Source: Escherichia coli
Lineage (GTDB): Bacteria > Pseudomonadota > Gammaproteobacteria > Enterobacterales > Enterobacteriaceae
Assembly (NCBI RefSeq): GCF_044647545.1
Contig: NZ_CP172818.1
Direction: 5' to 3' (one strand)
DNA: 64,000 bases
Shown: piece after piece, positions 1 to 50,684 of the stretch
Numbering within the stretch: the first letter of the stretch is position 1
Layout of the letters: every line of letters begins with the position of its first letter
Notes under the pieces: generated by a model
What the model was told of the DNA's origin: nothing
Database searches by the model: none
What the model saw: the letters and a program-made list of their open reading frames with translations, nothing else
Translations under genes and position numbers: made by a program

Positions 1-1320
1 GGATGCCAGAATGCGCGAACATCGATAGTACGATAGTCGCCTTTATCTTCCAGGGTAAAACACAGTCGTCCCAGCCCCGGCGCTTTCATGCCAAATAACA
101 GCGTAAGTTGTTTTTCCGGTTCAACGACAATCACTTTCCAGCTATCCACCGCATCGCCGGTCTGCAAATATTCACGCTCCGGGCGGCCTTTCGCCAGCTT
201 ATGACCGATCGCGCGGTCCATCAACGCCCGGGTTTGCCACAAAATGTTGCCAAAGAAATAACGCTCTTTACCGCCGATTTGATTCACCACCTGCCATAAA
301 GCCGCAAGACTGGCGGACGTTTTAACGGTAAACCCCGCCTGTTTGGCGAAATAACCGTACTCCGGTCGCCAGCGGGCAAAGGCCTGAGCGTCGTAGCCCC
401 AGTCGCTGGAGTTGACCAGCTTTTCTTCTTCTTTCAGGGTGCGACGTACCGCGTCATCGAAAGCAATCAGCCGTTGTGGGATGAGTGCACGTAACGCGGT
501 GTCATCTGCCAGCAGATCGTGTTTCAGCCCCTGAATCAACGCTTTGGCGGTGGTGGGCGGTACGGAAGTAATCACATTGAGAAACCACACCGAAATCCAG
601 CGGGTCGGAAAGGGGATGGGGATCAACCAGCGGCGCTTACCGCTCACCGCCATAAAATGTTCAAACTGTTGCTGATAACTGAGCACTTCTGGTCCGGCGG
701 CTTCGAAGATGCGATGTTCGCTGGCCGGATGATCTAACAGCGCCACCAGATAGTGCAGCAAGTTTTCCAGCGCGATGGGCGTGGTGCGTGAACGAACCCA
801 GCGTGGCGGCGTTAACACTGGCAGGTTGTAGACCATATCGCGCATGACTTCGAACGCCGCTGAACCTGCACCAACGATTATTCCGGCACGCAATTCGGTC
901 ACCGGGACACCCGCTTCACGAAGAATATCCGCCGTAGCCTGACGGGCGCGCAGATGGTCAGACTGCTCATGTGCCGGGGCCTGCAACGAACTGAGAAAGA
1001 TTAATTGCTTAACTGGGACTTCACGTAGCGCATCGCGGACGTTGAGAGCCACCTGGCGCTCCTGAGCGATAAAATCGCCGCCTTCGCCCATGCTGTGCAC
1101 CAGAAAATAGACCGTATCGATATCCTGCAACAGGGCCGGAAGGTTATCCGGCCAGCTGAGATCGACTTTATGGCAACTGACGTTTGCCAGTTGCAGCTTT
1201 GCAAGCCTGTCGACATGACGTGCCGCCGCCAGGATCTGATGCCCTTGCTGGCTGAGTGTGTGCACCAGATGCTGACCAATATAGCCACTGGCACCGAGAA
1301 CTAAAATGCGTTGCGGCACG
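1..1320 (-). CDS. ybjT: NAD(P)-dependent epimerase/dehydratase-family protein YbjT, 5' portion (3' end lies beyond window start)
   Basis: Stop-free minus-strand frame from window edge to GTG at 1320-1318, preceded by GGAGG; N-terminus [16 protein letters not shown] is a Rossmann GxxGxxG motif; not in ORF track because of GTG start. Confidence 0.8.
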
Positions 1321-1329
1321 TCTCCCTCC

Positions 1330-2331
1330 TTAACGCGCCAGGAATGCGCGCCAGTGGGCGGCGACTTCCGCCAGCTGAGCGCGCGAGACGTCAAGATGCG
1401 TCACCAGGCGGACAATCGGCGAGGCGTTAATCAGCACGTTTCTCGCTTTCATGTATTCGCCTAACGCGGCAGCATTTTCTTCCCCGACGCGAACAAACAG
1501 CATATTGGTGTCCTGACGCATCACATCCGCGCCTGCTTCACGCAGCTGCTCCGCCATCCAGGCAGCGTTGTCGTGGTCTTCCTGCAAGCGCGCAACGTTA
1601 TTTTTCAGGGCATATATTCCGGCGGCAGCCAGAATGCCGGACTGGCGCATCCCACCGCCGGTCATTTTCCGCCAGCGAATGGCACGTTTAATGTAATCAC
1701 GATTACCGACGAGTAATGAACCGACTGGCGTCCCAAGACCTTTCGACAGGCAAATGGTGAACGAATCACAATATTGTGTGATCTCTTTCAGTTCGCAGCC
1801 GTAAGCCACCACAGCATTAAAGATGCGCGCACCGTCCACATGCAGCGCCAGATTGCGCTCGCGGGTAAATTCCCATGCTTCTTTGAGGTATTCACGCGGC
1901 AGCACTTTGCCGTTGTGAGTGTTTTCCAGACTGAGTAATTTGGTGCGGGCGAAATGGATATCGTCGGGTTTGATTTTCATCGCCACTTTATCCAGCGGTA
2001 GCGTGCCGTCGGCAGCCGCGTCGATGGGTTGCGGTTGAATACTGCCCAGCACCGCCGCGCCACCGGCTTCAAACAGATAGTTATGCGCGGCCTGACCGAC
2101 AATATACTCTTCGCCGCGTTCACAGTGACTGAGCAGAGCGACCAGGTTGGCCTGAGTGCCGGTAGGCAGAAAAATGGCGGCTTCTTTACCGGAAAGCTCT
2201 GCTGCATAGTCCTGCAGAGCATTAACGGTAGGGTCGTCTCCGTAAACGTCGTCCCCAACCGGGGCGGCCATCATCGCTTCGAGCATGGCGCGGCTCGGTC
2301 GGGTAACGGTATCACTGCGTAAATCAATCAT
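1330..2331 (-). CDS. ltaE: low-specificity L-threonine aldolase (PLP-dependent)
   Basis: 333-aa ORF; N-terminus [12 protein letters not shown] and overall sequence recognised as threonine aldolase family. Confidence 0.92.
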
Positions 2332-2367
2332 GGCATGTCCTTATTATGACGGGAAATGCCACCCTTT

Positions 2368-4086
2368 TTACCTTAGCCAGTTCGTTTTCGCCAGTTCGAT
2401 CACTTCATCACCGCGTCCGCTGATGATTGCGCGCAACATATACAAGCTAAATCCTTTGGCCTGTTCAAGTTTGATCTGCGGTGGAATGGCTAACTCTTCT
2501 TTGGCTACTACCACATCCACCAACACCGGACCGTCGATGGAAAAGGCGCGTTGCAGGGCTTCATCGACTTCAGAGGCTTTTTCCACGCGAATACCCGTAA
2601 TTCCGCACGCTTCGGCAATGCGGGCAAAGTTGGTGTCGTGCAGCTCAGTACCGTCTGTCAGGTAGCCTCCGGCTTTCATCTCCATCGCCACAAAGCCCAG
2701 CACGCTGTTATTAAAGACGATAATTTTCACTGGCAATTTCATCTGCATTACTGAGAGGAAATCGCCCATCAACATACTGAAACCGCCATCGCCGCACATG
2801 GCGACCACCTGACGTTCCGGCTCGGTTGCCTGCGCACCCAGCGCCTGCGGCATGGCGTTAGCCATCGAACCGTGGTTAAACGAACCTAACAGACGACGCT
2901 TGCCGTTCATTTTCAGATAACGCGCTGCCCATACTGTCGGCGTACCAACGTCACAGGTGAAAATAGCGTCATCGGCGGCAAAATGACTAATTTGCTGCGC
3001 CAGATATTGCGGGTGAATGGCTTTCTCGCTCGGTTTAGCTAAATCGTCCAGCCCTTTGCGGGCATCGCGGTAATCTTCCAGCGCTTTATCCAGAAACTTG
3101 CGATCGGTTTTTTCTTCCACCAATGGCAGCAATGCACGCAGAGTCGACTTGATATCGCCGACCAGTGCCATATCTACCTTGCTGTGCGCACCAATGCTAG
3201 CTGGATTAATATCAATCTGAATAATTTTTGCATCGGTCGGGTAGAAAGCACGGTAGGGAAATTGCGTGCCGAGCAGCACTAACGTGTCGGCGTTCATCAT
3301 GGTATGGAAACCTGACGAGAAGCCGATTAATCCCGTCATTCCGACATCATACGGATTATCGTATTCGACATGTTCTTTACCGCGCAGGGCATGAACAATA
3401 GGCGCTTTAATTTTCCCGGCAAACTCAACTAACTCTTTATGCGCCCCCGCGCAGCCGCTGCCACACATCAGGGCGATATTGCTGGAATAACGCAGCAGTT
3501 GCGCCAGTTTGCGTAACTCTTCTTCTTCCGGCGTCACGACTGGTTGTGGCGCATGATACCAGTGCGTGGTTGCCCCTTCTGGCGCAGGTTTTAACGCCAC
3601 GTCGCCCGGTAACACGACAACGGAAACGCCACGGTTTAGCACCGCTTTGCGCATGGCAATCGCCAGCACTTGTGGGATTTGCTCCGGGCTGGAAACCAGC
3701 TCGCAATAGTGACTACATTCGCGGAATAACTCTTGTGGGTGGGTTTCCTGGAAATAGCCGCTGCCAATTTCGCTGGAGGGAATATGAGCGGCAATCGCCA
3801 GTACCGGAACGTGATTGCGGTGGCAATCGAACAGGCCGTTGATTAAGTGCAGGTTACCGGGACCGCACGATCCGGCACAGACCGCCAGTTCTCCGCTAAG
3901 TTGTGCTTCAGCGCCAGCGGCAAACGCCGCCACTTCTTCATGCCGGGTGGACATCCACTCGATGGTGCCCATGCGATTAAGACTGTCACTAAGACCGTTC
4001 AGAGAGTCGCCCGTGACTCCCCAGATGCGTTTCACTCCTGCCGATTCGAGTGTTTTGGCGATATAAGCTGCAACCGTTTGTTTCAT
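2368..4086 (-). CDS. poxB: pyruvate oxidase (ubiquinone), thiamine-diphosphate/FAD enzyme
   Basis: 572-aa ORF; TPP-enzyme architecture with GDGG motif ([10 protein letters not shown]); recognised sequence. Confidence 0.95.
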
Positions 4087-4218
4087 GGTTCTCCATCTCC
4101 TGAATGTGATAACGGTAACAAGTTTAGTTCATCTGACGGAGGGGGAAGGGATGGGAGAAAAAGGAGGCACTAACGGTTAAATAGCCCGATGAAAGGAATA
4201 TCATCGGGCATAAGGCGA

Positions 4219-5187
4219 TTATGCGAGAACCAAATCCCCCTGCGGATGGCAGGAGCAGGCCAGTACGTAACCTTCAGCGATTTCGGCGTCGGTCAGCGTC
4301 ATTGTGCTGCTCACCGTATATTCACCGGAAACCACTTTCGTCTTACAGCAGCCGCAAACACCTGCGCGGCAGGCGGCGACAACCGGAACGTTATTGCTTT
4401 CCAGCGCCTCCAGTAGCGTGGTGCCAACCGGGGCGTAAAATTCTCGTGCCGGTTGCAGTTTGGTGAATTTCAGACCGCTGGTCGCCGCTTCCGCTACTGG
4501 GGTGAAGAATTTCTCTTTAAAGAAACGCGTCACGCCGAGCGCTTTCACTTCCTGCTCTACCCAATCCATATATGGAGCAGGGCCACAGGTCATCACGGTA
4601 CGTGAGGCTAAATCAGGGACACCTGCCAGCAGTTCGCGAGTGAGACGACCAGCGATAAAGCCTTCGGTAACGTTATTTTCCGCCACCAGCGTTACCGGAT
4701 AGTTACGCCACTCATCGGCGAAAATCACATCCTGCGGCGTACGCACGTTGTAGATCACCTGCACATCGGCCTGTGGACGGTTCTTCGCCAGCCAGCGACG
4801 CATCGACATAATCGGCGTAACGCCGCAGCCTGCCGCCAGCAACAGGAATTTATCTTCTGCTTTATCGTCGCAGGTAAATTCCCCCATCGCGTCCGAAAGC
4901 CAGAGATAATCACCGCGTTTTACATCGCGCGTCAGCCACCGGGAGCCGACACCGTCATCAATCCGCCGCACAGTCAGGGTGATGTATTCACTCACGCCTG
5001 GCGTGGAGGAAATGGTGTAAGCACGCAGCGTTTCCGCTGAGTTACGCACGCTGACCAGTGCATATTGCCCGGCGCGATATGGGTAGTAATCGTGGCAAAT
5101 CAGGGAAATCGTCCACACATCCGGCGTTTCTTGCGTAATGTGATGAACCTGCATCCGCCACGGGCATTGATTCGTTGGCATCGTCAT
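4219..5187 (-). CDS. hcr: NADH oxidoreductase for hybrid-cluster protein (FAD/NAD-binding plus C-terminal 2Fe-2S ferredoxin domain)
   Basis: ORF 4219-5193; start taken at internal Met (MTMPTNQ) for 322 aa; C-terminal Cys cluster CRAGVCGCC...C; 11 bp downstream of hcp. Confidence 0.88.
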   Translation of the reverse strand: MTMPTNQCPWRMQVHHITQETPDVWTISLICHDYYPYRAGQYALVSVRNSAETLRAYTISSTPGVSEYITLTVRRIDDGVGSRWLTRDVKRGDYLWLSDAMGEFTCDDKAEDKFLLLAAGCGVTPIMSMRRWLAKNRPQADVQVIYNVRTPQDVIFADEWRNYPVTLVAENNVTEGFIAGRLTRELLAGVPDLASRTVMTCGPAPYMDWVEQEVKALGVTRFFKEKFFTPVAEAATSGLKFTKLQPAREFYAPVGTTLLEALESNNVPVVAACRAGVCGCCKTKVVSGEYTVSSTMTLTDAEIAEGYVLACSCHPQGDLVLA

Positions 5188-5198
5188 CGACAAACTCC

Positions 5199-6851
5199 TT
5201 ACGCGCTCAACAGTTGCTTCATGTCTTCTTCAACAGTGGTGATAGAACGCAGGCCGAATTTCTCGTTCAGCACCGCCAGCAGGTCTGGTGTCAGGAAACC
5301 AGGTGCAGTCGGGCCGGTGACGATATTTTTCACACCCAGAGAAAGCAGCGTCAGCAGAATGACAATCGCTTTCTGTTCAAACCAGGAGAGCACCAGCGAC
5401 AGCGGCAGATCGTTGACTCCGCAGCCCAGTTTCTCTGCCAGCGTTACCGCCAGAATAATTGCTGAGTAAGCATCGTTACACTGACCAGCATCTACCAGAC
5501 GCGGCAGACCTTCGATATCGCCAAACTCAAGTTTATTAAAGCGATATTTACCGCAAGCGAGGGTCAGGATCAGGCAGTCATCCGGCACGCTGGTGGCGAA
5601 ATCGGTGAAGTAGTGACGCTCGCCGCGTGCGCCGTCACAGCCGCCAAGCAGGAAGATATGACGCAGTTTTTCACGGCTCACCAGATCAATCAGCGTATCG
5701 GCTGCGCCAAGCAGTGTCTGGCGACCAAAGCCCACGGTGATCAGGTGCGGAATTTCGCTGTACGGGAAGCCCGCCATCTGTTGCGCCTGGGCGATGACCG
5801 CAGAGAAATCTTCGCCATCCAGATGACGCACACCCGGCCAGCCAACGATGCTGCGGGTCCAGATACGATCGTCATAAGCGCCTACGGTTGGGTCGATGAT
5901 GCAGTTCGAGGTCATCACGATGGGGCCAGGGAAACGAGCGAACTCCACTTGCTGATTCTGCCAGCCGCTGCCGTAGTTACCGACCAGATGCTTGAATTTA
6001 CGCAGCTCCGGGTAGCCATGCGCAGGCAGCATTTCACCGTGGGTGTAGACATTAACGCCCGTGCCTTCGGTCTGTTCCAGCAGGTTGTAGAGATCTTTGA
6101 GATCGTGACCGGAAATCAGAATGCATTTACCTGCCGTCGCTTTGACGTTGACCTGGGTTGGCGTCGGGTGACCGTATTTACTGGTTTCGCCTGCATCCAG
6201 AATGCTCATCACTTTGAAGTTCATCTGGCCGATTTCCATTGAACACTCAAGAAGCGCGTTCATATCGGCAGGCCAGGTCCCCAGCCACGCCATGATTTTA
6301 TGGTACTGGGCATAAATATCGTTGTCGTATTGACCGAGAACATGCGCGTGTTCCATATAGGCCGCCGCACCTTTCAGGCCATACAGGCACAGCAGACGCA
6401 GGCCGAGAATGTTTTCGCCAATCGCCGCTTTATCTTTGTTAGGGGTAAATTCTGCTGCCTGACGTTGCAGCTCGCCGAGATCGTCGCTCACCAGTTGCAG
6501 GTCAGCCATCGGGTTATCGACGTGCGCGTTGGCATCTACAGCCAGGCATTGTGCTTTCAGCGCCTCGCGCAGGACAATCGCTTCACGAGCGTAGCCGACA
6601 ATTCGCGGAGAATCGAAGTTAACGTTGGTCAGGGTTGAGAAAAAGGCACGTGGCGCAAAGCTGTCTACATCGTGGTTGATGATGCCGTATTCACGTGCTT
6701 TCACTGCCCAGGCCGAAAGCCCTTGCAGCGTCGCGATGAGTAAATCCTGAAGGTCAGAGGTTTCCGCCGTTTTACCACACATCCCCTGCGCGTATGAGCA
6801 GCCGTTTCCTGCCGGAGTACGGATAGTTTGTTCACATTGCACACAAAACAT
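5199..6851 (-). CDS. hcp: hybrid-cluster protein (hydroxylamine reductase)
   Basis: ORF 5199-6884; start taken at MFCVQCEQT (N-terminal Cys cluster) for 550 aa; recognised sequence. Confidence 0.92.
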
Positions 6852-6993
6852 GATCACACCTTTAAAGTTATATTTAATATGCATGTTTAAGGTTAAGACG
6901 CTTAACGCGGGGATAAAAGGGATTTTTCATGCAACTTTAAGGGAGATTGATTTAGCGCAATTTTGGCGGCAGGGATCTACCGCCAGAGAGGTA

Positions 6994-7893
6994 TTATGCA
7001 GAGAAAAAGGCGATGAGAATCGGCACTAACAGACTAAGAATAAAACCGTGAACAATCGCCGCCGGGACCATATCCAGCCCGCCAGTACGTTGAAGAACGG
7101 GCAGGGTGAAATCCATCGATGTGGCACCGCATAAGCCCAGTGCAGTAGAGCGGCTGCGGCGAATCAGCCCAGGGATCAACATAATAGCAATCAGCTCACG
7201 GGCCAGATCATTAAAAAACGCCGCGCTCCCGATTACCGGACCAAAAGATTCGGTCAATAAAATACCGGAAAGAGAATACCAGCCGAAACCGGAGGCCATT
7301 GCCAGCGCGGTATTGATGGGAAGATCAAGAATAAAGGCGTTAATTAAACCACCAATTAATGAACTGGCAACCACCACCACGGCGACAATCATTCCCCGGC
7401 GATTAAGGACAATCTGCTTTAAGGTCATGCCATTATTGCGCAACTGAATACCGACGAGGAAAAGTAGCAGAATTAAGGTGTATTCACTGGCTTCGGTCGC
7501 GTGTTGTAAGAAAGCCAGTCCACTCAGGCCAATGGCAAAACCAATCACTACTACGCCGCACAGTTTTAGCGACTCCAGCGCCATCGCAATACGCGATGGG
7601 AGTTTTTCTTGCTGGTGGTAGTTGCGCCACGGCAGACCGCGCTCCAGCCACATCAGGGCGGCAATATTACACAGTAAAATAACGGTAATACTGACAGCAG
7701 AATAATGCAGAATCGCCAACAGGTTACTGGCGAGGTTATCGAGAAACGCCAGACTGATACCCATAAAAAAGAGAATGAGGTAAACCATCCAACTTAATAG
7801 CTGATTAATAACTTTTAATGCAGCTTTTTGGCGAAGCGGAATGAGGTAACCCAAAATCAGGGGAACCAGAATGATTAACAGCCCAGAAAACAT
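6994..7893 (-). CDS. lysO: inner-membrane lysine exporter LysO/YbjE
   Basis: ORF 6994-7941, highly hydrophobic; start placed at MFSGLLIILVPL (299 aa) from recalled length, upstream in-frame Met possible. Confidence 0.8.
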   Translation of the reverse strand: MFSGLLIILVPLILGYLIPLRQKAALKVINQLLSWMVYLILFFMGISLAFLDNLASNLLAILHYSAVSITVILLCNIAALMWLERGLPWRNYHQQEKLPSRIAMALESLKLCGVVVIGFAIGLSGLAFLQHATEASEYTLILLLFLVGIQLRNNGMTLKQIVLNRRGMIVAVVVVASSLIGGLINAFILDLPINTALAMASGFGWYSLSGILLTESFGPVIGSAAFFNDLARELIAIMLIPGLIRRSRSTALGLCGATSMDFTLPVLQRTGGLDMVPAAIVHGFILSLLVPILIAFFSA

Positions 7894-8297
7894 GAAAACC
7901 CAGTCCTTGCAAAGATGAAGTCGAAATGCGCGATGACACACTACTGAAAGCGGAAGGACGAGTAAAGTTGCAATTAAAAGGAAATGTTATGCATCAGGAG
8001 CAGGGGATTTTTATTATGTTGCATTGTTGTGGTCTCTTCCATGTGCATTAAGCCACTGGCGAGGAGCGCAAATCGCCGATCGTTTCCTGTAGGCCGGGGC
8101 AGCCCACATAATGTGGGCTGAGGGCGCGTTTTACAGGGATCAAACTTACCGGTCGCGCGAGAAGTCCAACTTCAGCCCGAGGTTCATGTGGCTTCCTGGC
8201 CTTCGGGAACCGCTTCAGCGTATTGACGCCACCAAGACCCGTGGTTCGGTAACGTCGAAGATAAAACAACCAGGGCAGATAAAGTGCCAATGCTTAA

Positions 8298-44303: not shown

Positions 44304-46586
44304 TTACATAGATTGAGTGAAGGTACGAGTAATAACGTCCTGCTGCTGTTCTTTAGTCAGCGAGTTGAAACGTACTGCGTAGCCAGATACACGGATGGTC
44401 AGCTGCGGATATTTTTCCGGGTTTTCCATCGCGTCGAGCAGCATTTCACGGTTCATCACGTTAACGTTCAGGTGCTGACCACCTTCGATGGATGCTTCGT
44501 GGTGGAAGTAACCATCCATCAGACCAGCCAGGTTGGTCTTACGAACTTCGTCGTCTTTACCCAGTGCGTTCGGAACGATAGAGAAGGTGTAGGAGATACC
44601 ATCTTTAGCGTAAGCAAACGGCAGTTTAGCAACGGAAGTCAGAGAGGCTACAGCACCTTTCTGGTCACGACCGTGCATCGGGTTAGCACCCGGTCCGAAC
44701 GGCGCGCCAGCACGACGACCGTCTGGGGTGTTACCAGTTTTCTTACCATACACAACGTTAGAAGTGATGGTCAGAACAGACTGAGTCGGGATTGCGTCAC
44801 GGTAGGTGTGCAGTTTCTGAATTTTCTTCATGAAACGTTCTACCAGGTCAACAGCCAGGTCATCTACACGCGGATCGTTGTTACCAAACTGCGGGTATTC
44901 GCCTTCGATTTCGAAGTCGATAGCCAGACCGTCTTCGTCACGAATCGGTTTAACTTTCGCATATTTGATTGCAGACAGGGAGTCTGCAGCAACGGACAGA
45001 CCAGCGATACCACACGCCATGGTGCGGATAACGTCACGGTCGTGCAGCGCCATCAGAGAGGCTTCGTAGCTGTACTTGTCGTGCATGTAGTGGATGATGT
45101 TCAGTGCAGTGATGTACTGTTTAGCCAGCCAGTCCATGAAGTGATCCATGCGCTCCATCACTTCATCGTAGTTCAGGAGATCGCCTTTGATCGGTTCAGA
45201 CTTCGGACCAACCTGCATTTTCAGTTTTTCGTCAACGCCGCCGTTGATTGCGTACAGCATGGTTTTCGCCAGGTTTGCACGCGCACCGAAGAACTGCATT
45301 TGTTTACCAACGATCATCGGGCTTACGCAGCAAGCAATAGCGTAGTCATCGTTGTTGAAGTCCGGACGCATCAGGTCATCGTTCTCATACTGCAGAGAAG
45401 AGGTGTCGATGGACACTTTAGCGGCGAATTTCTTGAAGTTCAGCGGCAGTTTTTCAGACCACAGAATGGTCATGTTCGGTTCCGGAGACGGACCCATGGT
45501 GTACAGGGTGTTCAGGAAACGGAAGCTGTTTTTGGTAACCAGGGTACGACCGTCGAGGCCCATACCACCGATAGATTCGGTTGCCCAGATCGGGTCGCCA
45601 GAGAACAGTTCATCGTATTCCGGAGTACGCAGGAAGCGAACCATACGCAGTTTCATGACCAGGTGGTCAACCATTTCCTGCGCTTCTTGTTCGGTGATCT
45701 TGCCAGCTTTCAGGTCACGTTCGATGTACACATCCAGGAAGGTGGAGGTACGACCGAAGGACATTGCAGCACCGTTCTGAGACTTAACAGCAGCCAGGTA
45801 GCCGAAGTAAGTCCACTGGATAGCTTCCTGAGCGTTGGTAGCCGGACCAGAGATGTCGTAGCCGTATTTCGCAGCCATTTCTTTCATCTGACCCAGAGCG
45901 CGGTGCTGTTCAGCGATTTCTTCGCGCAGACGGATAGTCTGTTCCAGGTTTACGCCGTTTTCCAGATCAGCCTGCAGAGAAGTGAACTGTGCCAGTTTGT
46001 CTTTCATCAGGTAGTCGATACCGTACAGCGCAACGCGACGGTAGTCACCGATGATACGACCACGGCCATATGCATCTGGCAGACCGGTCAGAACACCAGA
46101 TTTACGGCAACGCAGGATGTCCGGAGTGTAAACGTCGAACACGCCCTGGTTGTGAGTTTTACGGTATTCAGTGAAGATTTTTTTGATCATCGGATCCAGT
46201 TCGCGGTTGTACGCTTTGCAGGAACCTTCGATCATTTTGATACCACCGAACGGGATAAGAGCACGTTTCAGCGGAGCTTCAGTCTGCAGACCAACGATTT
46301 TCTCAAGCTGCTTGTTGATGTAGCCAGCGTCGTGAGAGGTGATGGTGGAAGCAACAGCGGTGTCAAAGTCAACTGGCGCGTGAGTGCGGTTTTCCAGTTT
46401 AACGCCTTCCATTACTTTGTCCCACAGGGTGGTGGTCGCTTCAGTAGCGCCAGCCAGGAAGGACTCGTCACCCTCGTACGGAGTGTAGTTTTTCTGAATG
46501 AAGTCACGGACGTTTACTTCATTCTGCCAGTCACCTTTGGTAAAACCTTCCCAGGCTGTGGCTAACTTTTCATTAAGCTCGGACAT
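44304..46586 (-). CDS. pflB: pyruvate formate-lyase (glycyl radical enzyme)
   Basis: 760-aa ORF; C-terminal glycyl-radical motif RVSGYAVRF; recognised sequence. Confidence 0.97.
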
Positions 46587-46640
46587 GTAACACCTACCTT
46601 CTTAAGTGGATTTTTTATTTACTGCGTACTTCGACAACCA

Positions 46641-47498
46641 TTAATGGTGGTCGTTTTCACGCAGGTAAATGACCCAGTATGTCAACCCAACCAACAAACC
46701 ACCACCGATAATGTTGCCGATCGTAACCGGAATCAGGTTATCAGTGATGAAATTCATCACGGTCAGGTGAGAAAAATTTTCCGGTGCTGAACCGACTGCG
46801 GTCCAAAATTCCGGGGATGCGAAGTCGCGGATTACAATACCCATCGGGATCATAAACATGTTTGCGATACTGTGCTCAAAACCGCTGGCAACAAACATCG
46901 CGACCGGCAACACCATAATGAACGCTTTATCCATCAGGCTGCGGCCAGAATAACTCATCCATACTGCCAGACATACCATCAGGTTTGCCAGGATACCAAG
47001 GCAGACGGCCTCAATAAAAGTATGGTGCACTTTGTGGTCGGCGGTTTGTAGGACGTTTAGTCCCCATTGACCATTCGCGGTCATATACTCGCCGGAAAGC
47101 CACATTAAAAGTACAAACAGCAGTGCGCCGACCAGGTTGCCAAAATAGACATTTAGCCAGTTTTTCGCCAACTGACCCCAGGTGATGCGCCCACTCGCCT
47201 TAGCAACAACAATCAACACTGTGGAAGTAAAGAGATCGGCTCCGCAGACAACACAAAGAATCAGCCCCAGAGAGAAGCAAATGCCGCCAACCAGTTTTGC
47301 CATGCCGAAGGGCATTGTTCCTGTGCCAGTGGTTGCTGTGATATAGAAGACGAATGCGATTGAGATGAAAACACCGGCGGTAATCGCCAGATAGAAAGTC
47401 TTAAGCGGATGTTTCGTTGCTTTATAGACACCTGCCTCTTCGGCCACTTTGGCCATTGCTGCAGGAAGTAAAAGATCAAAAGGGTTGTCAGCTTTCAC
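46641..47498 (-). CDS. focA: formate channel FocA (FNT family)
   Basis: ORF 46641-47837; start placed at GTG (VKADNPFDLLLPAAMAK) for 285 aa. Confidence 0.85.
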   Translation of the reverse strand: MKADNPFDLLLPAAMAKVAEEAGVYKATKHPLKTFYLAITAGVFISIAFVFYITATTGTGTMPFGMAKLVGGICFSLGLILCVVCGADLFTSTVLIVVAKASGRITWGQLAKNWLNVYFGNLVGALLFVLLMWLSGEYMTANGQWGLNVLQTADHKVHHTFIEAVCLGILANLMVCLAVWMSYSGRSLMDKAFIMVLPVAMFVASGFEHSIANMFMIPMGIVIRDFASPEFWTAVGSAPENFSHLTVMNFITDNLIPVTIGNIIGGGLLVGLTYWVIYLRENDHH

Positions 47499-47558
47499 AC
47501 TAACTCTCTCTTTATTAAGTCGGCGACGAGATACTAACAAAGCATTATAGATGAGAAA

Positions 47559-47572
47559 TTGATATAGATCAT
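47559..47572. promoter_or_regulatory. FNR-like palindrome TTGATATAGATCAT in the focA-pflB promoter region
   Basis: TTGAT-N4-ATCAT, 9 of 10 match to FNR consensus; about 60 bp upstream of focA start in a 400-bp AT-rich leader. Confidence 0.5.
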
Positions 47573-47903
47573 ATCTCGCCTGGCTTATAGGCCCGTAACT
47601 CGCATGGTTTTTATGCAAATACGGAGTAAATGTTTGATTATCCAAATAAAAATAAATTTTAAAAATTAACAAATGAGTTGAATTTTTTCCGCATCCTCCG
47701 CTAAAACAGTTAATTAAAAGGGAGCACCAGGCGAATAAAGTAACAATATCGATCGTATTTATTAAATATAAATTACCGATATTTAACTTTATAATTACAA
47801 TTATTTTGTTAATGCAAATATATGTAAAGCGGGGCATTAAAAAAACGCCCCGTAATATAACTCAGACGAATCATTAAGCCTACATTGCGTAGGCTATTTG
47901 ATT

Positions 47904-49664
47904 TTATTTTGCCCAGAATGCTGCTTTGGCGCGCTGCAGCTTTTCGTAGGCCTTCAACAACGACTGATGTGCAGCAAACGCGTGCAGATCGCTATCTACT
48001 GGTTGCAAGCCATAAAACGCCGCTTCGCCGCTCATTGCCGCACTGGCGGCTTCCACGGCATCTGCGCCGTACATGCGAACAAACGCATTCAGATATTGCA
48101 GCGGCTGGCGATCTTCTTCCTGCGCCAGTAATAACAACGTTTGCAGGCAGCGATAATAGTTGGCGCGTTCCGGACTAAATACTGATGAGTTAAACTCCAT
48201 CGTCCATTCGGTCCAGACCAGAGCCTGTTCCAGATCGCCACCAGCCAGCGCCAGCATGGCTTTTAATTCTCCGATACGCAGGGTGTACCAACCGTTATCC
48301 GACCCGGTCGCCAGACCCAACAGCTCACGCACGCGAGTAAAGTCATCAAAACCTTCTTCATCCAGTTGCTCGATAAGGTTCAGGTAATCTTCTTTTTCCC
48401 ACTCGCTGCCTGGTAACGAAAGAATCGTTTCACGTAAATGGCTGCCCATACTGTTATTCGCCAGCCACAGATCTTCAGCCGGATAAATATCGGACATGCC
48501 AGGCACGATAATTCGGCAAGCATAAACGCCCAGATGCTCGTAATCGGCAATATAAACTTCTTTATCTTCTTTGTTGAAGATAGCCATCAGCGTAGCAAAC
48601 TCTTCTTCCGTAGTGCCGGAGAAATTCCAGTCCACAAACGGATAATCGGCATCCTGCTTGAACAGGTCCCAGGAGATTAAACCGCTGGAATCGATAAAGT
48701 GCGTTTCGAGGTTGGTATGTTCAGCAACTTCTTCATCATCGAAGGTTGGCGGAGTAAACACATCCAAATCTTTCAGGCCACGACCTTGCAGCAGCTCGGT
48801 CACGGTACGTTCCAGTGCTACGCCAAAATCAGGATGCGCACCGAAAGAGGCAAAGCAGGTGCCGTTAGCAGGATTAAACAGAACCACGCAAATCACCGGA
48901 TACTGGCCGCCAAGCGAACCATCATAAGCAAAGATTGGGAAACCTTCTGCTTCCAGTGTTTCGATCGCTTCAACCACCGCTGGGTAACGCGCCAGCACGT
49001 CTGCCGGGATTTCCGGCAAGCTGATGCTTTCAGCAATAATGCGGTTTTTCACGTAGCGTTCGAAAACTTCGGACAATCCCTGAACGCGTGCTTCGTTACG
49101 GGTATTGCCAGCAGACATACCGTTAGAAACGTACAAGTTACCAATGATATTCATCGGAATATAAATGGTCTGGTTGTCGGACTGGCGCGTAAACGGTAGA
49201 CCGCAAATACCACGATCTTCGTTACCGGATTGCAGGTCAATCAGCATACTACCGGTCAGTTCATTCTCCGGATCGTAAAATGCGCGCAGACGGTCATCGA
49301 GCAGCCCTTCTGGTACATCGTCATTTTCGGTCAGTGGGAACCATTTTTCGTTGGGATAATGCACGAATGGGCCGTTGGCGATGGTTTCGCCCAGCCAGAA
49401 GTCCGCAAAAAAGTAGTTGGTTGAGAGACGCTCGAAATATTCACCGAGGGCAGAAGCCAGCGCCGCTTTTTTGGTTGCGCCTTTACCGTTGGTAAAACAC
49501 AGTGCGCACTCTTTGTCGCGAATATGTACAGACCAGACATTAGGCACGGGATTCAGCCAGGAGGCCTCTTCAATCTGAAAACCGAGGTCTGAAAGTTTTT
49601 GCTGGAAGCGTGCGATGGAATCTTCCAGAGCGGCATCTTTGCCGGGGATAAATGTTTGCGTCAT
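47904..49664 (-). CDS. ycaO: YcaO-domain protein (ATP-dependent amide activation family)
   Basis: ORF 47904-49697; start at MTQTFIPGKDAALED (586 aa); recognised YcaO sequence. Confidence 0.9.
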   Translation of the reverse strand: MTQTFIPGKDAALEDSIARFQQKLSDLGFQIEEASWLNPVPNVWSVHIRDKECALCFTNGKGATKKAALASALGEYFERLSTNYFFADFWLGETIANGPFVHYPNEKWFPLTENDDVPEGLLDDRLRAFYDPENELTGSMLIDLQSGNEDRGICGLPFTRQSDNQTIYIPMNIIGNLYVSNGMSAGNTRNEARVQGLSEVFERYVKNRIIAESISLPEIPADVLARYPAVVEAIETLEAEGFPIFAYDGSLGGQYPVICVVLFNPANGTCFASFGAHPDFGVALERTVTELLQGRGLKDLDVFTPPTFDDEEVAEHTNLETHFIDSSGLISWDLFKQDADYPFVDWNFSGTTEEEFATLMAIFNKEDKEVYIADYEHLGVYACRIIVPGMSDIYPAEDLWLANNSMGSHLRETILSLPGSEWEKEDYLNLIEQLDEEGFDDFTRVRELLGLATGSDNGWYTLRIGELKAMLALAGGDLEQALVWTEWTMEFNSSVFSPERANYYRCLQTLLLLAQEEDRQPLQYLNAFVRMYGADAVEAASAAMSGEAAFYGLQPVDSDLHAFAAHQSLLKAYEKLQRAKAAFWAK

Positions 49665-49793
49665 GAAAATCACTTTAGTCGTACGGAAAGCGCGCAATAA
49701 TACGGGTTTTATCTCAAAGGCGCTATCACCGCCGCCATGCCGATGAACTGTTGGCTATGCTTTTAGCGGATAAACCACGATAAGAGCATAAAA

Positions 49794-50486
49794 ATGAAGG
49801 CGTTCGATCTCCACCGTATGGCATTTGATAAAGTGCCTTTTGATTTCCTTGGCGAAGTGGCACTACGTAGTCTTTATACCTTTGTACTGGTTTTTTTGTT
49901 CCTCAAAATGACCGGAAGACGCGGTGTGCGGCAGATGTCGCTGTTTGAAGTGTTAATCATTCTGACGCTGGGTTCAGCGGCGGGAGATGTGGCGTTTTAT
50001 GATGATGTGCCGATGGTCCCGGTACTTATCGTCTTTATTACTCTGGCGTTGTTATACCGCCTGGTAATGTGGTTGATGGCGCACAGTGAAAAACTGGAAG
50101 ATCTACTGGAAGGTAAGCCGGTTGTCATTATTGAAGATGGCGAGCTGGCCTGGTCGAAACTCAATAACTCCAACATGACGGAATTTGAGTTCTTTATGGA
50201 GCTACGATTGCGCGGTGTGGAACAGCTGGGGCAGGTACGTCTGGCGATTCTCGAAACCAACGGGCAAATCAGTGTCTATTTCTTTGAAGATGACAAGGTG
50301 AAACCGGGGTTACTTATTTTACCCAGTGACTGTACTCAGCGTTACAAAGTGGTGCCGGAGTCGGCGGACTATGCCTGCATTCGTTGCAGTGAAATCATTC
50401 ATTTGAACGCGGGGGAAAAACAATTATGTCCGCGCTGTGCAAATCCAGAATGGACGAAGGCAAGTCGGGCAAAACGGGTGACCTGA
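49794..50486 (+). CDS. ycaP: DUF421-family inner-membrane protein YcaP
   Basis: 230-aa ORF with N-terminal TM segments; divergent from ycaO. Confidence 0.8.
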   Translation: MKAFDLHRMAFDKVPFDFLGEVALRSLYTFVLVFLFLKMTGRRGVRQMSLFEVLIILTLGSAAGDVAFYDDVPMVPVLIVFITLALLYRLVMWLMAHSEKLEDLLEGKPVVIIEDGELAWSKLNNSNMTEFEFFMELRLRGVEQLGQVRLAILETNGQISVYFFEDDKVKPGLLILPSDCTQRYKVVPESADYACIRCSEIIHLNAGEKQLCPRCANPEWTKASRAKRVT

Positions 50487-50684
50487 CAGTAAAAACATCG
50501 GCTTTTTGCTAATAATCCGAGAGATTCTTTTGTGTGATGCAAGCCACATGTTTGCCCTCAACGGTTTTACTCATTGCGATGTGTGTCACTGAATGATAAA
50601 ACCGATAGCCACAGGAATAATGTATTACCTGTGGTCGCAATCGATTGACCGCGGGTTAATAGCAACGCAACGTGGTGAGGGGAA

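Follow-up and report, generated by a model that had tools for sequence, protein, structure and literature searches.

The ycaO locus

The window, that is, the whole 64,000-nucleotide stretch of Escherichia coli DNA that was analysed, carries ycaO on the minus strand at 47904..49664 (586 amino acids plus the stop codon). A minus-strand open reading frame at 47904..49697 encloses the RefSeq coding sequence, which occupies exactly 47904–49664 (6505–8265 of locus L001). Translation starts with the ATG at 49664 and gives MTQTF..., the same N-terminus as that of the crystallized protein. The gene was assigned from the RefSeq coding sequence, the Pfam and NCBIfam matches, the match to PDB entries and the predicted pI of its product. 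The aligned parts of positions 8172–64000 of the window were 99.7–100% identical to NZ_CP033850.1, and positions 1–8171 had no alignment among the matches listed. The 2.5 kb ycaO region was found in 5425 of 5426 complete E. coli genomes, in 82 of them at an identity of at least 99% and in several at 100%.

Downstream of ycaO and on the same strand, a spacer of 405 bp is followed by focA (46641–47498, minus strand, GTG start), pflB and pflA. Upstream, ycaP (49794–50486, plus strand, DUF421) diverges from ycaO across a spacer of 129 bp. This arrangement agrees with the preliminary description of the window, in which a region of about 400 bp and focA were placed downstream and a divergent ycaP upstream. 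The divergent spacer (49665..49793) presumably holds the ycaO promoter and 5' UTR; no ORF of 12 or more amino acids lies wholly inside it, and a scan with consensus sigma-70 elements gave no match there, the matches in the region being no commoner than in shuffled sequence. An Rfam scan of 46500–50600 at E values of up to 1 returned no structured RNA.

Two stable hairpins were predicted 3' of the ycaO stop codon (47830..47895, minus strand), one at 47877–47895 and the other at about 47830–47852, with a U-rich tract after the second. The RNA fold of 47810–47915 (minus strand) had an energy of −33.4 kcal/mol (z = −4.3) and was equalled by none of 200 shuffled sequences; the hairpin at 47877–47895 was also detected in a separate scan of the region. 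On this predicted folding, the hairpins are probably the transcription terminator(s) of ycaO, which would then end before the focA promoters. The remainder of the spacer (47499..47829, minus strand) was assigned to the upstream regulatory region of focA-pflB, a neighbour apart from the function of ycaO. It contains a promoter-like site at 47828–47800 and an FNR-box-like site at 47559–47572 (TTGATATAGATCAT) with one mismatch to TTGAT-N4-ATCAA.

Domain composition and ATP-binding site

The catalytic YcaO domain (ATP/Mg2+-binding) was located with Pfam PF02624 at residues 59–391 (48492..49490, minus strand; 253 bits against a cut-off of 25.7, E = 4.9e-75, profile positions 1–325 of 325), and the C-terminal helical (TPR-like) domain YcaO_C with PF18381 at residues 407–581 (47922..48446, minus strand; 220 bits, E = 2.5e-65). 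A score of 574 bits on TIGR00702 (cut-off 75.65) places the product in the YcaO superfamily. The NCBIfam equivalog NF040716 ('YcaO_for_S12') was matched with 916 bits (cut-off 700) over profile positions 1–570 of 571. The PF02624 and NF040716 matches bear out the initial identification of a YcaO-domain gene at 47904–49664.

The window protein is identical in 585 of 586 residues to the protein of PDB entries 4Q84, 4Q85 and 4Q86. Compared with this protein (EcYcaO; UniProt P75838) it has equal length, domains, ATP-site residues, pI and genomic locus, and the sole difference, the conservative substitution V167I, is a strain polymorphism. Its predicted pI is 4.38, with 92 Asp and Glu residues against 42 Lys and Arg. 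The gene in the window is an intact, ordinary E. coli ycaO and shows no departure from the characterized enzyme.

The ATP-site residues S71, E75, E78, R79, E199, E202, R203, R286 and E290, a list which we take to be that of Dunbar et al. (2014), are all present in the window protein. Their conservation was followed in 30 homologues of 35–66% identity; this diverse set was obtained from a 50%-identity cluster search, the first homologue search having given only relatives that were at least 84% identical. E202 was kept in 30 of the 30 sequences and E290 in 26, and each of the remaining listed residues in at least 27. The lack of ATP-binding residues, which the preliminary description had named as grounds for abandoning its reading, was looked for and was not seen: the residues are in place and are conserved in the homologues. 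The YcaO ATP-binding site was defined by the 4Q84–4Q86 structures, with 4Q85 among them as a nucleotide-bound form, and thioamidation is impaired in the E202A variant and other ATP-site variants of EcYcaO (Rice et al., Biochemistry, March 2026; PMC13063428). The window protein keeps every EcYcaO residue that was probed by Rice et al., namely L55, F57, R79, D88, R295, T317, E320, D325, L329, R444, R463, F491 and E202.

Search for partner genes and precursor peptides

About 55 genes are annotated in the 64 kb window (as taken from a near-identical reference record), and none of them is named as TfuA, an E1/ThiF-like protein, a SagB-type dehydrogenase, an RRE protein or a precursor peptide. The annotated run includes ybjT, ltaE and poxB, then clpA, cydDC, trxB, ftsK, serS, dmsABC, pflAB, focA and ycaO, and beyond ycaO it continues with ycaP, serC, aroA, cmk, rpsA, ihfB, msbA, lpxK and kdsB.

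Most characterized YcaO enzymes are RiPP enzymes, and YcaO might be a cyclodehydratase or thioamidase of the RiPP type whose substrate is an unrecognized small precursor peptide encoded nearby. All ORFs of at least 20 and then of at least 12 amino acids were collected from both spacers (47499–47903 and 49665–49793 in the window) in E. coli, Klebsiella, Serratia and Mixta and were inspected for conserved sequences rich in Cys, Ser and Thr. Small ORFs of 12–45 amino acids exist mechanically in both E. coli spacers. None of the small spacer ORFs is rich in these residues (Cys/Ser/Thr fraction of at most 0.27), and the six E. coli ORFs that overlap the spacers have no Pfam match. Only one ORF in the spacers was shared across the four enterobacterial genera; it encodes 12 amino acids (MIYINFSSIMLC) and overlaps the FNR-box-like site in the focA promoter region. 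It was rejected as a precursor peptide because its conservation is that of regulatory DNA and not of a peptide.

The profile scores point the same way. On TIGR03604 (TOMM SagD family) the window protein scored 43.7 bits against a cut-off of 219.25, which leaves it outside the RiPP azoline cyclodehydratases, and on TIGR03266 it scored 38.2 bits against a cut-off of 365, which, with no tfuA annotated in the window, leaves it outside the TfuA-associated thioamide-forming group as well. E. coli encodes no TfuA, none is found near any uL16-type YcaO, and a RiPP role was also rejected by Rice et al. (PMC13063428). With gene neighbourhoods that differ wholly between lineages (see below), action on a nearby precursor is exceedingly improbable. 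The view that ycaO stands alone, without RiPP partner or precursor, is therefore upheld by the window annotation, by the spacer ORFs and by the eight lineages compared; a conserved precursor-like peptide nearby, which would have changed the interpretation, was not found in the spacers of the four enterobacterial genera.

Gene neighbourhood across lineages

The neighbourhoods of ycaO were compared across Enterobacteriaceae and beyond in eight lineages: E. coli, Klebsiella, Serratia, Mixta, Actinobacillus, a Bacteriovoracaceae-like genome and two others. The order ycaO-focA-pflB-pflA is kept in E. coli, Klebsiella, Serratia and Mixta. In Actinobacillus ycaO sits between a gene of the RNase E/G family and a restriction-enzyme gene, and in the Bacteriovoracaceae-like genome and the two other lineages its neighbours are unrelated. 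No neighbour of ycaO was common to all eight lineages. A conserved neighbour as a candidate sulfur donor was rejected on this ground.

The position of ycaO next to the focA-pflB operon had been singled out in the preliminary description, and the adjacency itself is confirmed. Functional coupling to this anaerobic formate/pyruvate operon, for example through modification of PflB or a response to anaerobiosis or sulfide, would be in keeping with the gene order, which is conserved in the four genera and, according to Watson et al. (2020; PMC7550191), across Gammaproteobacteria, and with the FNR-box-like site inside the spacer. Against it, two strong hairpins lie between the ycaO stop codon and the focA promoter region, and Actinobacillus and three further sampled lineages lack the adjacency. 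In the parts of the literature that bear on this point, focA-pfl is reported to be transcribed independently of ycaO, and thioamidated ribosomes were obtained from aerobic cultures (Watson et al., 2020, PMC7550191, citing Sawers, 2005). When 4,403 E. coli proteins were screened proteome-wide against EcYcaO with AlphaFold3, confidence was high only for uL16, uL29 and YcaO itself, and not for PflB or FocA (PMC13063428). Coupling to focA-pflB-pflA is thus very unlikely. The adjacency is a lineage-specific synteny, confined to Enterobacterales in the sample, a view that Watson et al. (2020; PMC7550191) share.

The S12 methylthiolation annotation

RefSeq and NCBIfam still name YcaO as an S12 methylthiotransferase accessory factor, and the preliminary description had likewise stated that the protein supports RimO-dependent methylthiolation of ribosomal protein S12. 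The name derives from the study of Strader et al. (2011), in which, as recounted by Rice et al. (PMC13063428), YcaO co-purified with tagged uS12 and methylthiolation of uS12 fell from 99% to 84% in a ycaO deletion. YcaO could on these grounds be primarily an accessory factor for the RimO-dependent beta-methylthiolation of uS12 Asp88, and the current annotation is in its favour. The effect is small, however; in the same account an S12 peptide is modified in vitro by RimO without further factors, and the modification is lost entirely when rimO is deleted (PMC13063428). The AlphaFold3 ipTM values with YcaO are 0.31 for uS12 and 0.16 for RimO, compared with 0.8–0.87 for uL16 (PMC13063428). An indirect effect, by way of ribosome association or of altered ribosomes, suffices to account for the data.

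A direct accessory role of YcaO in S12 methylthiolation is unlikely, and we would give a function centred on uS12 only a small chance. Of that statement, the annotated name is still in use, while the contribution to the modification is minor, RimO being sufficient in vitro. As a database entry, 'S12 methylthiotransferase accessory factor' misleads and has not kept up with the literature.

Thioamidation of uL16

A thioamide between Met82 and Gly83 of uL16 was found in a 2 Å cryo-EM map and by mass spectrometry, and YcaO was put forward as the prime candidate for its formation (Watson et al., 2020; PMC7550191). Rice et al. (PMC13063428) then showed that EcYcaO directly thioamidates Met82 of uL16, using deletion, co-expression and in vitro reconstitution. 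Ribosomes of the ycaO deletion lacked the thioamide mass shift of about 16 Da, and HR-MS/MS gave an error of 0.1 p.p.m. for replacement of oxygen by sulfur against 11.2 p.p.m. for the oxygen alternative. Co-expression of EcYcaO led to complete thioamidation of uL16, which was not obtained with ATP-site mutants, and purified MBP-EcYcaO modified full-length uL16 only in the presence of Na2S, MgCl2 and ATP (PMC13063428). Neither GluC fragments nor 11- and 21-residue peptides served as substrates; the substrate is folded uL16, which is bound with a Kd of 9.8 nM (PMC13063428). Single Ala substitutions on either partner hardly alter binding, which indicates a broad electrostatic interface between proteins of pI 4.4 and 11.2, and in the AlphaFold3 models only uL16 puts its loop, with Met82, into the active site of EcYcaO (PMC13063428). 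The orthologues from Klebsiella (KpYcaO) and Pseudomonas (PaYcaO) modify their own uL16 (PMC13063428).

An acidic pI (4.4 for EcYcaO) was described as a hallmark of the uL16-type YcaOs (PMC13063428). The pI of 4.38 of the window protein agrees with this description, and most full-length homologues in the 50%-identity clusters have a pI of about 4.3–5.9. The features of the uL16-thioamidating group are all found at the locus: the NF040716 match, the acidic pI, the YcaO_C domain and the absence of an adjacent TfuA, E1-like, RRE or precursor gene. The protein for which the function was demonstrated is that of K-12/BW25113, 585/586 identical to the window protein; the evidence for the function is that of a paper from one laboratory and of one structural paper (PMC13063428, PMC7550191).

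On comparison of the sequences, the window ycaO very probably encodes an ATP-dependent backbone thioamidase for Met82 of uL16, acting on a folded ribosomal protein encoded elsewhere and not on a nearby precursor. The function is assigned to the window protein because 585 of its 586 residues are identical to those of the characterized enzyme, because the catalytic residues, the domains and the pI are intact and because the gene has no genomic partner; the sequence holds no contrary sign. The preliminary remark that it is not well defined which chemistry the protein performs alone was reasonable until recently and has been superseded by the thioamidation of uL16 Met82 (PMC13063428). The annotation of ycaO in the window is clean and its function is already published. 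The gene is the namesake of the superfamily and was for decades without a known substrate, a question that is now answered.

The reaction may be pictured as follows. EcYcaO, a standalone and very acidic (pI 4.4) homodimer, binds the very basic uL16 (pI 11.2) through a broad, electrostatically complementary surface, and the long uL16 loop (residues about 70–93) is predicted by AlphaFold3 to enter the ATP/Mg2+ site. The backbone carbonyl of Met82 would be attacked by a sulfide equivalent; by analogy with other YcaOs, ATP would phosphorylate the resulting oxyanion and phosphate would be eliminated. The product is the Met82-Gly83 thioamide beside the peptidyl-transferase centre. To our knowledge, the uL16 thioamide is only the second protein thioamide known.

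A neighbouring residue of uL16, Arg81, is hydroxylated by RoxA. Deletion of ycaO causes no growth defect in LB or M9, and the sole phenotype reported by Rice et al. is an epistasis with deletion of roxA, whose growth defect in M9 is rescued when ycaO is deleted as well (PMC13063428).

Comparison with other YcaO systems

The methanogen YcaO that thioamidates a glycine of McrA (TIGR03266; for example MJ1094, PDB entry 6PE3) resembles EcYcaO in that it is ATP-dependent, forms a thioamide in a protein backbone and is not a RiPP enzyme. The ATP-binding core is shared and residues 175–306 align; the two proteins are nevertheless very distant (E = 6.6e-4 to 6PE3, with the TIGR03266 score far below its cut-off as given above). 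The methanogen enzyme accepts short McrA peptides and is usually paired with TfuA, whereas EcYcaO needs folded full-length uL16 and has no TfuA in E. coli (PMC13063428). EcYcaO also has the extra TPR-like YcaO_C domain. With the RiPP azoline cyclodehydratases (TOMM enzymes of the SagD/McbD/LynD type) EcYcaO has the YcaO fold and the logic of amide O-phosphorylation in common. These enzymes depend on an E1-like or RRE partner and on a precursor peptide encoded nearby, and often on a dehydrogenase too, in contrast to the ycaO locus, and they use side-chain nucleophiles, whereas EcYcaO uses an external sulfide equivalent and a folded protein substrate.

The OsmC/YcaO fusions (TIGR03549; Halobacteriovorax/Bacteriovoracaceae) are closer. 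In the YcaO and YcaO_C parts they share 53% identity with EcYcaO, whose score against the YcaO portion of TIGR03549 is 681 bits, and a representative fusion is likewise acidic (pI 4.7) and has no partner gene in its context. At their N-terminus the fusions have an OsmC-like domain of about 147 amino acids, which the E. coli protein lacks.

Conserved cysteines and a possible sulfur relay

Thioamidation in vitro was obtained at a non-physiological sulfide concentration (PMC13063428). Sulfur might reach uL16, without TfuA or ThiS, by a cysteine-based persulfide or thiol relay, but judged from the sequences this is a long shot. A bearing of the OsmC fusion or of Cys53/56 on sulfur delivery or redox control is likewise speculation, to which only slight odds can be given. 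If the OsmC domain or Cys53 did carry or deliver sulfur, the missing partner in E. coli could be a thiol protein, OsmC-like or otherwise, whose gene lies elsewhere. Neither the conserved Cys53/56 nor the OsmC fusions are discussed by Rice et al. (2026; PMC13063428).

A Cys at position 53 or 56 of EcYcaO is kept in 27 of the 30 diverse homologues. At a distance of two to four residues from this Cys are L55 and F57, possible residues of the uL16 interface according to Rice et al. (PMC13063428). The E. coli protein has C53-x-x-C56; most homologues have Leu, Ile or Val at position 56, and a conserved CxxC was rejected since only a single Cys is conserved.

The third-best match to EcYcaO among the 50%-identity cluster representatives (P0123, 53% identity, pI 4.7) is a fusion of the OsmC-YcaO-YcaO_C type. 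The lineage of Halobacteriovorax and Bacteriovoracaceae stands outside Pseudomonadota. The three-domain architecture recurs in at least 119 relatives of this fusion among the matches listed, of which the named ones come from this lineage. In the OsmC part, Cys50, Cys59 and Cys112 are invariant in 120 of the 120 relatives listed, and the two canonical (redox) cysteines of OsmC/Ohr line up with Cys50 and Cys112.

Domain fusions of YcaO

In close relatives of EcYcaO, the 586-residue ycaO product, from Halobacteriovorax and Bacteriovoracaceae, an OsmC domain is fused N-terminally to YcaO (TIGR03549), as seen in P0123 (gene at locus L004, 10001–12190) and the 119 relatives listed with it (P0307–P0425). 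The fusion is acidic and is 53% identical to EcYcaO. Its OsmC part contains three cysteines that are without variation in P0123 and the 119 listed relatives (120/120), and two of the three align with the canonical catalytic cysteines of OsmC/Ohr. The OsmC fusions are not mentioned by Rice et al. (2026; PMC13063428), who described EcYcaO as the uL16-Met82 backbone thioamidase. These fusions may be a clue to a sulfur or redox partner of the uL16-type YcaOs.

The domain partners found in three distant YcaO homologues (P0205, P0211 and P0264) differ and give three architectures: a 1472-residue protein with a fused methyltransferase domain, a 1189-residue protein with an unannotated N-terminal region of ∼640 residues, and a 1105-residue protein carrying PDZ, S41 peptidase and peptidoglycan-binding domains. 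To our knowledge, none of these three fusion types has a characterized member.

Cysteines 53 and 56 of EcYcaO

The C53-A-L-C56 motif of E. coli YcaO (codons at 49497–49508 of the window) lies a short way ahead of the invariant NGKG. A cysteine is present at position 53 or 56 in 27 of the 30 diverse homologues aligned (35–66% identity to EcYcaO); the CxxC pair as such is not conserved across this set. The motif adjoins Leu55 and Phe57, which are possible uL16-interface residues in Rice et al. (PMC13063428).

Genes and open reading frames around ycaO

In E. coli and Klebsiella, ycaP (DUF421; window 49794–50486) lies between ycaO and serC. At the Serratia and Mixta ycaO loci (L009 and L010) ycaP is missing, and ycaO and serC are divergently oriented immediate neighbours. 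ycaP thus does not count as a conserved ycaO partner.

The mechanical ORF list gave focA as 398 residues (46641–47837, minus strand). The true GTG start is at 47498, the frame being open for a further 339 nt upstream, and this extension, which crosses the AT-rich promoter region, was rejected as an artefact. An FNR-box-like site, TTGATATAGATCAT, with one mismatch to TTGAT-N4-ATCAA, precedes the GTG of focA by 61–74 bp (47559–47572, minus strand). It is overlapped by a 12-residue ORF, MIYINFSSIMLC (47534–47572, minus strand), which is kept in Klebsiella and in part in Mixta; this is most simply accounted for by conservation of the regulatory DNA.

A stop-free ORF of 750 residues (44313–46565, plus strand) runs antisense to pflB (44304–46586, minus strand) in the codon-aligned frame and spans nearly all of it. 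The codons TTA, CTA and TCA become stops when the opposite strand is read. Since they are nearly absent from pflB (one, none and none, respectively, in 761 codons), reflecting the extreme codon bias of a highly expressed gene, the antisense frame stays open, and it was rejected as a gene and regarded as a by-product of this bias.

Distribution of the region in E. coli

Window positions 47400–49900 were compared with 5426 E. coli genomes, of which a single one lacked a match. Most matched at 95–99% identity and only 82 at ≥99%; the 100% matches include ST648-labelled strains or strains from varied hosts. On these grounds the window appears to belong to a minority E. coli lineage. A few genomes had as many as 20 partial places, and five places were on plasmids.
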